Positions 2,457 through 59,627 of a stretch of 64,000 nucleotides of DNA are shown one piece after another. Where the stretch lies: NCBI GenBank assembly GCA_945879015.1, contig CAMCUO010000005.1, positions 1,306 through 65,305 of the forward strand, written 5' to 3'. A model generated the notes under the pieces. That model did no database searches, was not told the DNA's origin, and was given only the letters and a program-made list of their open reading frames with translations. The stretch is from Chitinophaga pinensis (lineage in GTDB: Bacteria; Bacteroidota; Bacteroidia; 2-12-FULL-35-15). The translations under genes were made by a program, and so were the position numbers. How positions within the stretch are numbered: the first letter of the stretch is position 1; each line of letters opens with the position of its first letter.

Positions 2457-2784
2457 GATTGAATTTAATTTTTTTGCAAAACAAATATAATCATTTTGGT
2501 TGAAACATGGTTGAATCGAAATGCTCTTTTTAATACTTTTTATGAACATTCAATGCCTATTTAGTATTTTACAAGTTATTGATATTCAGTAATTAAATAG
2601 AATTTAGTGGAATTAAGTAGAGTTCTCTCGACTCTCGAGCGGAGTCGAGAAACTGCTATTCTCTGCAAAACAATGTCATTAGCAAATTTTAACTTTACTA
2701 AGAATCGATTGTTAATTATTTCGTACTTTAGCATTCATAATTCATCCCCGCCATACTATTTAAATAGTATTTTTGCAATCATAT

Positions 2785-6452: not shown

Positions 6453-6484
6453 AAAGTCCCTGTTTTTAGGGACTTTATTTGTTA
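6453..6484 (+). terminator. Rho-independent terminator after the gldFG operon.
   Basis: Hairpin aaagtccc-tgttttta-gggacttt followed by a T-rich tail. Confidence 0.5.
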
Positions 6485-16096: not shown

Positions 16097-16268
16097 TTAA
16101 TAGCTCAGCCTATGTTTTAAGCATTCAATATACAAAGTAATACTTAGGAAAATCTAAAATAGACAAATTATCCCTCTGCTTTTTCAAGGAGAGGGAAGGC
16201 TGAGGTTTTAAAAGGGCTATTTTTGATTTTCACCTAGTATAAAAGTAACAATTATTCGTTTATTTGAG

Positions 16269-54954: not shown

Positions 54955-55104
54955 GTGACCTCGAAGGGAGTCGAATGGCGAGACTTTGCTCGCCACCGGG
55001 AGCAGTGCCTCGTGGCCCATAACCTTCGGTACCGGAAACCGACACTCTATCCAGTTGAGTGGCGAGGCTTAGCTCGTCATCGCGAGCTACGCCTCGCCAC
55101 TACA
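54955..55104 (-). repeat. Decayed tRNA-Arg-derived copy interrupted by two roughly 41 bp nested-palindrome insertions.
   Basis: Shares gtgacctcgaagggagtcgaa and aaccttcggtaccggaaaccgacactctatccagttgag with the intact tRNA. Insertions: tggcgagactttgctcgcca... and tggcgaggcttagctcgtcatcgcgagctacgcctcgcca. Confidence 0.5.
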
Positions 55105-55112
55105 TAATAATT

Positions 55113-55188
55113 TGTGACCTCGAAGGGAGTCGAACCCCCAACCTTCGGTACCGGAAACCGACACTCTATCCAGTTGAGCTACGAAGCC
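55113..55188 (-). tRNA. tRNA-Arg (anticodon CCG).
   Basis: Reverse complement GGCTTCGTAGCTCAACTGGATAGAGTGTCGGTTTCCGGTACCGAAGGTTGGGGGTTCGACTCCCTTCGAGGTCACA folds as a cloverleaf. Anticodon loop TTCCGGT; T-loop TTCGACT; several G-U pairs in the acceptor and T stems; no encoded CCA. Confidence 0.6.
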
Positions 55189-55203
55189 AAATTTGTTTTT
55201 TAC

Positions 55204-55265
55204 TCAGTTGAGTGGCGAGGTTTCACTCGCCATCGCGAGTTTTTTGCCTCGCGACTACGAAGCCA
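55204..55265 (-). repeat. tRNA 5'-half fragment carrying the same palindromic insertion.
   Basis: cagttgag + tggcgaggtttcactcgccatcgcgagttttttgcctcgcgac + tacgaagcca. Confidence 0.45.
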
Positions 55266-55292
55266 TATTTGTTGCAAAGGTAAATTATCTAA

Positions 55293-55553
55293 TTATACTT
55301 TATCGAAATATTTAGTAATGAGTTTATGAAGGTTTTCTGTATTTAAATTTTTCAATTTTTTCTCTAAAATCATCGCATCTGAGCGGCTTTGTTTTTCAAA
55401 ATATCCTATTAATTCCCAAGGAATATATGGTTTTGTAGATTTTTCAATCCCTGAATTGTGCCTATTTAATCTATCTTTAATACTGTTTTTTTGCCCAATA
55501 TAAAAGCGATTGTGACTTTTTGAATGTAAAATATATACGTAAAATTCTACCAT
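55293..55553 (-). CDS. Small GIY-YIG nuclease-domain protein.
   Basis: FYVYILHSKSHNRFYIGQKNSIKDRLNRHNSG is the canonical GIY...YIG...R...N motif. 86 aa; embedded among tRNA-derived repeats. Confidence 0.8.
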   Translation of the reverse strand: MVEFYVYILHSKSHNRFYIGQKNSIKDRLNRHNSGIEKSTKPYIPWELIGYFEKQSRSDAMILEKKLKNLNTENLHKLITKYFDKV

Positions 55554-55564
55554 AATTTATTGCC

Positions 55565-55652
55565 AAACCTTCGGTACCGGAAACCGACACTCTATCCAGT
55601 TGAGTGGCGAGGCTTTGCTCGCCATCGCGAGCTACGCCTCGCGACTACGGAA
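55565..55652 (-). repeat. tRNA-Arg fragment (D and anticodon arms) with a palindromic insertion, third copy.
   Basis: aaccttcggtaccggaaaccgacactctatccagttgag + tggcgaggctttgctcgccatcgcgagctacgcctcgcgac + tacggaacca. Confidence 0.45.
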
Positions 55653-55760
55653 CCATTATGTTGTAAAGATATTAACTATTTCCCTATGTTTTTATTAGAA
55701 GCAATACAATAAAATCAGTACTTTTATGTTTATATAATGCACTAATTGTGTTTATCTATA

Positions 55761-59542: not shown

Positions 59543-59627
59543 TCTTTTTTTTGATTTTTTTGAAATCGCCAAGAGTAATTCTCTTGGCGATTTTATTTTT
59601 TGTATCTTTATAATAAACATATCTAAA

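Follow-up and report, generated by a model that had tools for sequence, protein, structure and literature searches.

The locus described here lies in a 64-kb stretch of DNA, all of which was analysed and which we call the window. It comprises one valid tRNA-Arg(CCG) gene, three partial or disrupted copies of that gene and a gene for an 86-aa GIY-YIG nuclease, all on the minus strand (Table 1). An initial annotation had proposed a tRNA at 55113-55188, and both ARAGORN and Rfam accept this candidate as tRNA-Arg(CCG), at 55114-55188 and with 56.8 bits. This copy, copy B, folds into a cloverleaf above the curated RF00005 threshold, has a valid anticodon arm and is the sole tRNA that the two programs find across the 64 kb. 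Copies A, C and D are not called as tRNA by either program, their cloverleaves being broken by 40-nt inserts, by truncation or by both. The repeats reported earlier are present as described, the 39-mer AACCTTCGGTACCGGAAACCGACACTCTATCCAGTTGAG occurring exactly three times (55021-55059, 55140-55178 and 55566-55604) and the 8-mer CAGTTGAG a fourth time (55205-55212). Copy D stops 9 nt upstream of the ATG of the nuclease gene, and the T-stem sequence ATGGG of copy A is also found in the intact orthologous tRNA of two other loci, L012 and L018. The open reading frames between or beside the tRNA copies are the GIY-YIG gene and those of a TylF methyltransferase and PorZ only, with no integrase gene among them.

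The -7 promoter consensus of Bacteroidota is TAnnTTTG. The motif TATCTTTA, upstream of copy D, presumably would drive the GIY-YIG transcript, and the same motif precedes the hairpin-bearing 5' copies in L012, L028, L029, L104 and L099. The motif TACCTTTG, upstream of copy C, we take to be the likely promoter of the transcript that carries the intact tRNA.

Table 1. Features of the tRNA-Arg(CCG) locus. DH, double hairpin; nt, nucleotide numbering of the tRNA where so stated.
Feature	Position	Strand	Remarks
Promoter-like motif TATCTTTA	55664..55671	-	1 mismatch to TAnnTTTG; 10 nt upstream of copy D
Copy D, tRNA nt 1-10 GGTTCCGTAG	55645..55654	-	2 positions unlike the intact gene
DH-D	55605..55644	-	TCGCGAG-GCGTAG-CTCGCGA then TGGCGAG-CAAAGC-CTCGCCA; both stems perfect; between G10 and C11
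Copy D, tRNA nt 11-48 and degenerate T-stem remnant	55563..55604	-	39-mer as in the intact gene
GIY-YIG nuclease gene, 86 aa, catalytic domain only	55293..55553	-	Pfam PF01541
Promoter-like motif TACCTTTG	55275..55282	-	perfect TAnnTTTG; 10 nt upstream of copy C
Copy C, tRNA nt 1-10 GGCTTCGTAG	55255..55264	-	
DH-C, 42 nt	55213..55254	-	first loop 8 nt; both stems perfect; between G10 and C11
Copy C, tRNA nt 11-18 CTCAACTG, then 15-nt spacer	55205..55212	-	
Intact tRNA-Arg(CCG), copy B	55114..55188	-	ARAGORN; Rfam RF00005 56.8 bits, gathering score 29
119-nt unit: copy B T arm and 3' end, spacer, DH-A1, nt 11-48	55060..55178		
Copy A remnant GTAG, tRNA nt 7-10	55100..55103	-	spacer replaces the other 5' acceptor-strand bases
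DH-A1	55060..55099	-	copy A, between G10 and C11; second stem 1 mismatch
Copy A, tRNA nt 11-53, 39-mer and T-stem ATGGG	55016..55059	-	
DH-A2	54976..55015	-	copy A T loop, between G53 and T54; second hairpin perfect
Copy A, tRNA nt 54 to 3' end TTCGACTCCCTTCGAGGTCAC	54955..54975	-	

What splits the tRNA copies is a palindrome of about 40 bp that occurs four times, three times between tRNA nucleotides 10 and 11 and once between nucleotides 53 and 54. The split had been placed at the junction of D arm and acceptor; its position is indeed shared, but the true site, G10/C11, lies one base inside the D stem. The insertion noted in the T loop of one copy proves to be the fourth palindrome, at G53/T54, with a decayed first hairpin that has two mismatches. 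The half-site pattern TGGCGAGn6CTCGCCA has six matches against 0.04 expected, all of them within this locus. A generic search of the window for two abutting perfect 7-bp hairpins, a double hairpin (DH), returns this locus only and nothing in 20 shuffles, and the palindrome has no further copy within the 64 kb. The window copies can fold either nested, as first described, or as two hairpins in tandem, but only the tandem form is conserved in the family. In the family alignment, pairing in the tandem 7-bp hairpins reaches 97.4%; there are 131 compensatory cells, and the covariation score is 0.598 against 0.176 in shuffles, none of 500 shuffles reaching 0.598. The nested palindrome is 73% paired across the family and we reject it as the functional fold, possible though it is in the window's own sequence.

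The 119-nt unit is absent from the public contig L001, which is otherwise 100% identical to the window. Without the unit the locus holds no intact tRNA, and the L001 haplotype appears to be without any intact tRNA-Arg(CCG) there. The difference between the two sequences points to rearrangement that is ongoing within the population. As window and L001 differ by one repeat unit, the choice of an assembly path could also account for the difference, and the repeated structure as a whole might then be an artefact of a metagenome contig. We regard this as extremely improbable: independent assemblies from other samples and species have the same architecture, with tandem DH-bearing copies (L018, L111 and L134), and the repeats differ from one another.

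What kind of enzyme is encoded among these repeats? The GIY-YIG gene seen between the copies is borne out by Pfam, its 86-aa product matching PF01541 with 50.3 bits against a cut-off of 22.6 (E = 3e-13). Residues Y7, Y18, G20, R28, H32, N33 and E64, invariant among 27 relatives, are those of the catalytic motif, namely the Tyr of GIY, the Tyr and Gly of YIG, the Arg, the His and Asn, and the Glu. A profile search of the PDB returned 1zg2 (3e-9), 1ywl (2e-7) and SLX1 (2e-3), and for the AlphaFold model (pLDDT 92.9) the best Foldseek matches are 1zg2 and Slx1, with an rmsd of 1.5-2.2 Å. Judged by sequence profile and predicted fold, the nuclease is a member of the structure-specific Slx1/UPF0213 clade, a branch that includes YhbQ, BH0048 and EF2693 and supplies the best sequence and structure matches. 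Like the UPF0213 proteins it is a bare catalytic domain, with no RING, no separate DNA-binding region and no other additional domain in Pfam or in the AlphaFold model. Slx1 proper, in contrast, has a C-terminal RING/PHD-type zinc finger and the partner Slx4, whereas the single-domain window protein has neither a RING nor a partner of the Slx4 type. The family is a distinct Bacteroidota clade of 82-94-aa proteins that share the conserved motif LEKKLKNLN. For the window protein all NCBIfam models stay below their cut-offs, the group I intron endonuclease model scoring 16.6 against a cut-off of 56. In our literature search we found no description of a function for YhbQ/UPF0213/COG2827 and none of a link between bacterial UPF0213 proteins and tRNA genes or hairpin repeats.

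Two other affiliations of the nuclease were discarded. A phage origin finds no relative among 2.9 million viral contigs (IMG/VR), and the link to a PHROG family is a weak match to the catalytic core only. The PADLOC matches that would have indicated a defence system are weak and partial and likewise cover the GIY-YIG core only. Phage T4 SegB is also encoded by a GIY-YIG gene among tRNA genes, apparently a selfish one that acts via break repair (PMC2330249). Enzymes of the SegB type, however, bind DNA through a separate region and are spread from phage to phage by marker exclusion (PMC2330249), whereas the window nuclease has 86 aa and no extra domain, is cellular and comes with a cognate DH and a split tRNA copy.

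The combination of nuclease, hairpins and tRNA is widespread beside many different tRNA genes in Bacteroidota, and the GIY-YIG gene accompanies the palindrome, as the initial annotation had suggested should be looked into, in dozens of Bacteroidota genomes and metagenome contigs. We found 285 relatives of the nuclease in genome contigs and mapped 80 loci, all from Bacteroidota; the relatives at these loci almost always adjoin a tRNA gene on the same strand, with at least ten amino-acid types represented. For most mapped nuclease genes a DH is found no more than about 150 nt away, where it interrupts a partial tRNA copy. In 39 cases the gene is preceded by an intact tRNA and followed by a DH, and other genes form part of tandem arrays. 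The split copy always stands beside an intact one, with the nuclease gene placed between that intact copy and the DH. The loci L012 and L016 represent the orthologous locus and L002 carries the module at a tRNA-Arg(UCG) gene; here the order is promoter, tRNA nucleotides 1-10, DH, decayed tRNA, GIY-YIG gene and intact tRNA. At loci of the T-loop type the nuclease gene is placed just downstream of the tRNA, sometimes with zero gap. The DH may lie 5' or 3' of the nuclease gene and in either orientation, being inverted in L021, L028 and L029. Genomic islands that tyrosine integrases insert at tRNA genes likewise lie between an intact tRNA and a partial direct repeat of it, and favour the T loop. 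The element described here differs from them in being shorter than 0.5 kb, in having no integrase and in the hairpin module that interrupts its partial copy.

The junctions are precise. Of the 53 downstream partial copies, which were anchored without reference to any hairpin search, 48 resume tRNA homology exactly at T54, and the 7 nt preceding T54 are the 3' arm of a 7-bp hairpin. Insertion of the DH neither duplicates target bases nor removes any. The DH sits after G and before YT, its orientation following that strand. Its sites in tRNA genes fall within the D and T loops or at their edges, at 10/11, 15/16, 19/20 and mainly 53/54; the T-loop site 53/54 is thus the principal one in the family, and the D-arm position of the window belongs to a minority. 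The tRNA sequence retained beside a DH ranges from 5 to about 25 nt. It had been suggested that a MITE targets a specific structural position of the tRNA. The insert is discrete and does occupy defined tRNA positions, but it has no terminal inverted repeats and no target-site duplication; the tRNA is continuous across it, with no bases duplicated, as is not expected of a classical MITE. Nor is the unit derived from a tRNA, another early proposal, the hairpin sequence being foreign to tRNA and the same in different tRNA species. For the whole module, no clean pair of filled and empty orthologous sites was recovered.

A restriction of the unit to tRNA targets is contradicted by the metagenomes. 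There, 74 contigs carry 82 DH copies of the exact type, and 60 of the 82 are solo, with neither the nuclease gene nor a tRNA lying within 200 nt. In one sample, near-identical copies are present at several loci, a dispersal of the kind known for REP sequences. Solo DHs lie in other DNA, some of them inside short heptamer-like repeats, and the 5' neighbour of the DH is G in 51 of 67 unique contexts. At L104, L110, L125 and L099 a solo DH is accompanied by a partial tRNA duplication without a nuclease gene. Small dispersed repeats of cyanobacteria were considered as a source of the solo copies and set aside, the one contig checked (L124) pointing to Bacteroidota; the C-terminal ends encoded on it resemble, by eye, type IX secretion sorting domains, and it is probably from that phylum. 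The searchable literature held nothing relevant on small dispersed repeats in Nostoc.

Is the DH then an element in its own right? It might be a miniature element of the REP or IS200/IS605 kind, served by an unlinked enzyme, with an unrelated GIY-YIG gene, of a free-standing homing endonuclease or of the host, that happens to favour tRNA loci as well. The preponderance of solo copies fits such independence, and we know of no GIY-YIG enzyme that acts as a transposase. The DH also resembles the ends of IS200/IS605 elements and REP doublets in its hairpins of subterminal type, its lack of target duplication and its strand-specific insertion. IS200/IS605 miniatures share with it the end hairpins and an oriented insertion guided by a short motif; the DH, however, has a very short motif (G^YT) and a non-autonomous unit of about 40 nt, and neither a TnpA (Y1) transposase nor TnpB was seen in the loci inspected. 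REP/BIME sequences with their RAYT enzymes are likewise GC-rich and often paired hairpins, with many solo copies and one repeat-flanked enzyme gene (REPINs, PMC3116915; PMC3733652). Here, in contrast, the enzyme is a GIY-YIG hydrolase rather than a Y1 HUH transposase and its gene is tied to tRNA genes, and the DH is a head-to-tail doublet with 7-bp stems that does not follow the GTAG/CGTC tag rules (PMC3733652). The GTAG that precedes the D-arm inserts is tRNA nucleotides 7-10 and is absent at T-loop sites, which removes the DH from the GTAG group of REPs; the 8-9-bp stems that start with two A-T pairs and the head-to-head dimers of the CGTC group (PMC3733652) are not seen either.

Several observations tie the DH to the nuclease and make its independence unlikely. 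A DH within about 150 nt is the rule for the mapped nuclease genes, and no transposase gene adjoins the DH in the inspected window and loci. The stem type of the DH follows the nuclease lineage more than the tRNA type: protein identity is 0.631 among elements with a common hairpin-2 stem against 0.588, a difference that 0 of 1000 permutations reach. The inner triplet is identical in both hairpins of one element and covaries with residue 74 of the protein: among 20 GAG-type elements 18 have Asp there, and among 36 GAC-type elements 35 have Arg or Lys, an association partly confounded by phylogeny. The same switch is found even within the close protein pairs L053/L035 and L020/L065. Since residue 74 changes with the GAG/GAC pair at the top of the stem, the comparison suggests that the nuclease recognises the DH directly. 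Probably it binds each hairpin through its C-terminal helix.

The same proteins also speak to the history of the module. Nearest protein neighbours are found at unlike tRNA species, with identities of 73% for Arg/His, 72% for Lys/Met, 77% for Met/Ser and 76% for Leu/Ser, and by these comparisons the module has moved between tRNA species, taking its own DH type along. Hairpin type also partly follows tRNA type, Leu elements having TGCTGAC in common, so some of the pattern may be old vertical inheritance and not frequent movement. Enzymes of the Slx1 type work on branched DNA where replication runs into trouble. One could picture a module that is now immobile, for example an old structure-specific nuclease domesticated to deal with hairpins or stalled forks at heavily transcribed tRNA genes, with the arrays and the partial copies produced by replication slippage at the hairpins. 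The proteins are just 50-78% identical between genomes and some tRNA types keep one hairpin type. Look-ups of two exact proteins, P0012 and P0103, returned a single conserved locus each across many samples and no recent intragenomic copies of the whole module. Such immobility is nevertheless very unlikely in our view, given the relatives at different tRNA species, the near-identical solo DHs at many loci of one sample, the precise insertion at several tRNA positions and the 119-nt difference within a population.

Could the DH act as RNA instead? It might belong, together with its tRNA fragment, to a structured UTR or small RNA and serve as a stability or processing signal read by tRNA-processing enzymes or as a scaffold or guide for the nuclease. 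An RNA role would explain why tRNA fragments are kept. By their sequence motifs, the DH-bearing fragments are placed for transcription from tRNA-type promoters. Elements of the T-loop type keep 5 nt of T stem able to pair with nucleotides 61-65, which would enclose both hairpins in a cloverleaf-like junction. The stem cells that are not Watson-Crick pairs lean towards G-T on the sense strand, in small numbers. Set against this are the place of the DH, which changes between the 5' and the 3' side of the gene from lineage to lineage, its inversion at three loci, the prevalence of solo inserts in unrelated DNA and the variable length of the retained tRNA, which is as expected of a remnant. Even with E-value thresholds relaxed up to 1-10, Rfam offers no family for the hairpin module and matches nothing beyond tRNA. 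YrlA (24.8 bits, with a threshold of 69) and CRISPR repeats give hits at chance level only, far below threshold. Pedo-repair (RF01715) is unrelated; its paper shows a three-stem junction that precedes radC operons in a single Pedobacter genome, and it matches no locus. We consider a function at the RNA level improbable, to the same degree as the domesticated nuclease.

We favour, as moderately likely, the reading that the tRNA-Arg(CCG) gene has been colonised by a composite selfish element, consisting of a DH and a nuclease, that targets tRNA loops, has MITE-like derivatives and is found in many Bacteroidota. In the window the element has been particularly busy, with one nuclease gene, four DHs, three dead or partial tRNA copies and one live gene. 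The element would have two parts, a DH of about 40 bp, in which two hairpins with 7-bp stems abut, and a GIY-YIG catalytic-domain nuclease of 82-94 aa of the Slx1/UPF0213 type. The nuclease may nick or cut hairpin or loop structures, either the DH itself or an extruded T or D arm. The break would be repaired from a donor that carries a DH, by a copying process like that of homing or synthesis-dependent strand annealing; early annealing would copy the DH alone, and late annealing the DH together with the nuclease gene and a tRNA segment. Unequal recombination among the repeated tRNA pieces could then generate tandem arrays and the gain or loss of 119 nt seen here. Only lineages that restore an intact tRNA copy would survive, and the element would persist because that copy is kept. 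The nuclease gene is probably transcribed from the tRNA promoter, to judge from motif and position. The initial annotation's ideas of a position-specific MITE and of nuclease-mediated damage and repair both pointed in the right direction; the route of mobility is one that we infer from the anatomy of the loci.

Two features sit awkwardly with a simple scheme. GIY-YIG enzymes hydrolyse DNA, and strand joining is beyond them. Mobility must therefore rely on host repair, and junctions of such precision are then less easily accounted for. Beside the nuclease gene, the intact tRNA keeps the presumed target site, so the logic of a simple homing endonuclease fails. Parallels exist in organelles. The double-hairpin elements of fungal mitochondria are small two-hairpin mobile repeats that border mobile endonuclease genes. 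In Allomyces a mobile endonuclease ORF brings along the 3' end of the atp6 gene that it invades, so that the gene stays functional and a partial pseudo-copy is left. These systems are organellar and eukaryotic and have different sequences, and we claim no homology from the likeness.

What would such an element represent? Our full-text search, which is thin on subscription journals, found no published description of a module of nuclease, DH and tRNA. More tentatively than the composite element itself, and at less than even odds, we propose that a minimal structure-guided GIY-YIG nuclease and its cognate DH constitute a new class of bacterial mobile element, in which one monomer per hairpin would read the hairpin top through residue 74 of its C-terminal helix and drive precise 40-nt insertion, free of duplication, into tRNA loops and other hairpin-prone DNA. 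If this is true, the module would be the GIY-YIG counterpart of REP/RAYT and IS200/IS605 and a natural 'drive' at tRNA genes that regenerates its own target. A hydrolytic GIY-YIG enzyme with a cognate hairpin doublet would join the short list of spreaders of hairpin repeats in bacteria, and a UPF0213-type family without a functional description would be given a function. An 86-aa nuclease whose hairpin preference seems to flip with residue 74 would moreover be a very small and tractable model of DNA recognition by structure and sequence. One may also ask, from this locus, how a cell copes when a single-copy tRNA gene is hit again and again. The element would in addition explain the tRNA pseudo-copies, the tandem arrays of tRNA fragments and the small GIY-YIG genes beside tRNAs in many Bacteroidota genomes. 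Such features cause trouble in annotation and assembly.

With high confidence, the locus in the window belongs to a widespread module of nuclease, hairpins and tRNA. At this locus, four copies of tRNA-Arg(CCG), A to D, lie on the minus strand, of which ARAGORN and Rfam accept copy B alone. The 39-mer, the stretch of tRNA nt 11-48, occurs exactly three times; the half-site of the palindrome has six matches in the 64-kb window against 0.04 expected, all confined to the tRNA-Arg locus, and no second pair of abutting perfect hairpins was found elsewhere in the 64 kb or in 20 shuffles. Because these checks and the Pfam match hold, the initial annotation was correct in describing one plausible tRNA among three decayed, hairpin-bearing copies with an embedded GIY-YIG gene. 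It had placed the interruption at the junction of the D arm and the acceptor: the copies are indeed split, at a point now refined to G10|C11 in the D-arm inserts, and the insertion that it reported in the T loop of one copy turns out to be the palindrome once more, at G53|T54.

Features of the tRNA-Arg(CCG) locus, listed in the reading direction of the minus strand (window coordinates)
Feature	Position	Strand	Evidence
Promoter-like motif TATCTTTA	5' of copy D	minus	sequence
Copy D: tRNA nt 1-10	55654-55645	minus	
Copy D: 40-nt palindrome	55644-55605	minus	
Copy D: tRNA nt 11-48, 39-mer identical to live gene	55604-55566	minus	
Nuclease gene, 86-aa GIY-YIG ORF	55553-55293	minus	Pfam GIY-YIG match
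Second promoter motif, perfect TAnnTTTG	between nuclease gene and copy C	minus	
Copy C: nt 1-10, 42-nt palindrome, nt 11-18	55264-55205	minus	
15-nt spacer	between copy C and copy B	minus	
Copy B: intact tRNA-Arg(CCG)	55188-55114	minus	ARAGORN, Rfam
Copy A start: 10-nt spacer and GTAG	3' of copy B, before the 55099-55060 palindrome	minus	
Copy A: palindrome	55099-55060	minus	
Copy A: tRNA nt 11-53	55059-55016	minus	
Copy A: fourth palindrome	55015-54976	minus	
Copy A: tRNA nt 54 to 3' end	54975-54955	minus	

In copy D the 5' fragment of 10 nt (55645-55654) carries two mismatches to the live gene (GGTTCCGTAG versus GGCTTCGTAG), while the adjoining 79 nt of hairpins and 39-mer are flawless, a contrast suggestive of a mosaic origin or of local homogenisation in the remainder. 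Further perfect GC-rich 7-bp hairpins occur elsewhere in the window (2626-2650, 6454-6475, 16171-16196 and 59566-59590); they are single, never doublets, and are probably terminators. A weak Rfam match to the Y RNA-like family YrlA (55020-55164, minus strand; 24.8 bits against a gathering score of 69) was judged a chance product of the T arm of copy B and the D arm of copy A in succession.

The nuclease sequence also occurs on an 89-kb metagenome contig, L001, which is 100% identical to the window across flanks of 3.4 kb and 2.9 kb and lacks exactly one 119-nt unit delimited by two 39-mers (window 55060-55178 versus L001 3376-3414). In this version of the locus ARAGORN detects no tRNA, and the sole full-length one is interrupted in its T loop; with the unit missing, no intact tRNA-Arg(CCG) is therefore present at that locus. 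The difference is either a real haplotype that arose by recombination between repeats or a result of the path taken in assembly.

Protein relatives are many, labelled only 'GIY-YIG nuclease family protein', in Bacteroidia, Chitinophagaceae, Flavobacteriales and Fluviicola. An orthologous locus in a related organism (L012; 76% identity) and a different locus at tRNA-Arg(UCG) (L002; 67%) share the layout of the window: the promoter is followed by tRNA nt 1-10, the double hairpin and the decayed remainder of the local tRNA, and these by the nuclease gene and the intact tRNA. When one genome per species was scanned and the best 80 of 285 relatives were mapped as loci, nearly all nuclease genes adjoined a tRNA on the same strand, with Arg, Ser, Leu, His, Val, Gly, Lys, Pro, Met and Asp among the types represented. 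The most frequent arrangement mirrors that of the window, with an intact tRNA, in many cases a terminator, then the nuclease gene, a few T-stem bases, the double hairpin and tRNA nt 54-76. Insertion is precise. In downstream copies anchored on the tRNA 3' tail, independently of the hairpin search, tRNA homology begins exactly at T54 in 48 of 53, and the 7 nt preceding this point are the 3' arm of a 7-bp hairpin. Insertions at G10|C11 affect Arg, Ser and Asp tRNAs, those at A15|C16 carry inverted hairpins (L021, L028, L029), others lie in the D loop of Ser, Met and His tRNAs, and a few sit farther along the T loop. Tandem arrays of nt 54-76, terminator, nuclease, T-stem bases and hairpins are present at several loci (L036, L091, L094, L057, L071), and in L018, the closest relative of the window layout, an intact tRNA is followed up to the contig end by tandem hairpin-bearing copies that correspond to copy A. 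A Fluviicola nuclease copy (P0103; L170/L171 2505-4003) adjoins an AbiEii-family gene pair, probably by coincidence.

The two hairpins are conserved as a structure. Across 42 distinct T-loop modules aligned with loops removed, a tandem two-hairpin model is 97.4% paired, with 5' arms chosen by the loop length giving the best pairing and a perfect 7-bp match expected by chance across ~15 loop lengths at the order of 1e-3. In this model 131 cells are changed on both sides, the covariation score of 0.598 is reached by none of 500 shuffles (0.176), and slid registers collapse. The nested palindrome of the initial annotation is a fold that the window sequence can adopt, but it is only 73% paired across the aligned modules. 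Stem positions 5-6 (G-C, A-T) are almost invariant in both hairpins, the second hairpin always has T first and A last, and the first is frequently longer by 4-8 extra pairs.

The 86-aa nuclease is a single domain with no second, and its catalytic-motif residues are invariant among 27 relatives. A profile search of solved structures ranked the UPF0213 proteins BH0048 and EF2693 first, then Slx1; the predicted structure (pLDDT 92.9) lies within 1.5-2.2 A of the BH0048 and Slx1 nuclease domains, which rank above the UvrC N-terminal domain and I-TevI as structural matches. The nuclease belongs to the Slx1/UPF0213 branch of the GIY-YIG superfamily but is distinct from Slx1 proper. NCBIfam, PADLOC and PHROGs gave no above-threshold match, and no relatives were found in viral contigs.

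Nuclease and hairpins are linked. A double hairpin lies within ~150 nt of most mapped nuclease genes, and protein identity is 0.631 where the second-hairpin stem is shared versus 0.588 otherwise, a difference reached in 0 of 1000 permutations and exceeding the effect of shared tRNA type. The inner triplet, GAG or GAC, is identical in both hairpins of one element. Residue 74, which opens the C-terminal helix, varies with this triplet: 18 of 20 GAG elements have Asp, and 35 of 36 GAC elements have Arg or Lys. The residue switches even between close protein neighbours (L053, Asp and GAG, versus L035, Lys and GAC; likewise L020 versus L065). Such a pattern would be expected of a C-terminal helix that reads the top of each hairpin, and it is partly confounded by shared ancestry. 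We propose, with moderate confidence, that the nuclease recognises the hairpins. At T-loop-type loci (for example L094 1740-1770) the nuclease ORF passes through the T-stem bases and stops in the loop of the first hairpin, which therefore dictates the C-terminal tail of the protein.

The closest relatives among the proteins are frequently lodged at different tRNA species (Arg/His 73%, Lys/Met 72%, Met/Ser 77%, Leu/Ser 76%) and keep the same hairpin type. The tRNA pieces around the module always match the local tRNA and were therefore made locally, not brought in. Solo hairpins are abundant: a metagenome scan for the exact pattern of the window's hairpin type returned 82 double hairpins on 74 contigs, only 7 with a nuclease gene within 200 nt, a further 15 in or beside tRNA genes, and 60 with neither within 200 nt (43 of 54 where both flanks reach at least 400 nt). 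Several of the 60, including most of those inspected closely, are intergenic, in short heptamer-like repeats or the loops of larger palindromes, and near-identical copies occur on several contigs of one sample. On the one contig checked, protein C-terminal ends, read by eye from translations, resemble type IX secretion sorting domains, so this contig is probably from Bacteroidota. Insertion also follows a strand rule: G directly precedes the double hairpin in 51 of 67 distinct contexts, the following bases are TT or CT in 42 of them, and inverted tRNA inserts obey the same rule on the opposite strand. Since the tRNA sequence is continuous across the insert, there is neither target duplication nor target loss. 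At L104, L110, L125 and L099 the nuclease gene is absent and a solo double hairpin accompanies a partly duplicated tRNA beside an intact one, exactly the form of copies C and B in the window.

Downstream of an intact tRNA-Arg(CCU) in L099 (1-300, minus strand), at least four tandem 70-nt units of tRNA nt 54-76, AAAA, CAGG and double hairpin extend to the contig end, without a nuclease gene. Other solo hairpins lie within runs of heptamer-like repeats (TTCCCAG/TTACCAG, CCTATTG, TCACAAG; L103, L122, L133, L139, L147, L169; L102, L117, L128, L135, L141, L155; L149, L162, L165), whose similar 7-mers on either side could either predate the insertion as arrays or be footprints left by repeated insertion. 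Others again (L101, L097; also L121, L164, L166) occupy the loop of a longer inverted repeat that resembles a bidirectional terminator, which suggests a general preference for hairpin loops. At different tRNA genes (L104, L110, L112, L132), the spacers that separate the hairpin-bearing fragment from the intact tRNA share a motif close to AAAAGAGTTCTTTAnnTTAAA, which may be element-borne, for example an outward promoter.

How does this module compare with known systems? By analogy, it would work like a mixture of four. Fungal mitochondrial double-hairpin elements adjoin mobile endonuclease ORFs, which bring a duplicate of a portion of the gene they invade; the module appears to resemble them in that its double hairpin adjoins an endonuclease gene and the gene invaded is partly duplicated. 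Like the ends of IS200/IS605, the module has hairpins and an oriented target without duplication. Its nuclease gene lies among tRNA genes, as does the free-standing homing endonuclease SegB of T4 (PMC2330249), and it combines many solo hairpins with one enzyme gene flanked by the repeat, as in REP/RAYT (PMC3116915, PMC3733652). It departs from each in some defining feature: it has no DNA-binding domain, no integrase and, at the loci inspected, no Y1 transposase, and unlike REP repeats its hairpins follow no GTAG or CGTC tag rules; terminal repeats and target duplication are lacking. Rfam holds no matching family for the hairpin module, a literature search on small dispersed repeats in Nostoc returned nothing relevant, and in the full-text literature no description was found of a bacterial GIY-YIG gene linked to tRNA genes and accompanied by a cognate double hairpin; because coverage of that literature is incomplete, an earlier description is possible. 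We rate the module as a variant, not previously described in the literature found, of known kinds of selfish element.

We propose, with lower confidence, a break-and-copy mechanism read from these arrangements. The nuclease, probably as one monomer per hairpin, would recognise the hairpins and nick or break DNA at a hairpin or loop structure, and host repair would copy the module from a donor. A short repair tract would leave a solo module, and a longer one would bring in a segment of tRNA and the nuclease gene as well. Only arrangements with an intact tRNA would survive selection, and recombination between the repeated tRNA pieces would build or trim arrays. The weak points are that GIY-YIG enzymes cannot ligate, that the intact tRNA beside the nuclease gene keeps the presumed target, and that part of the associations between tRNA and hairpin may be old vertical inheritance. 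For expression, the module probably relies on the promoter of the tRNA: a motif of the type TAnnTTTG, the Bacteroidota promoter consensus, lies ~10-12 nt upstream of hairpin-bearing 5' copies, and at T-loop-type loci the nuclease gene is directly downstream of the tRNA, sometimes with a gap of zero.
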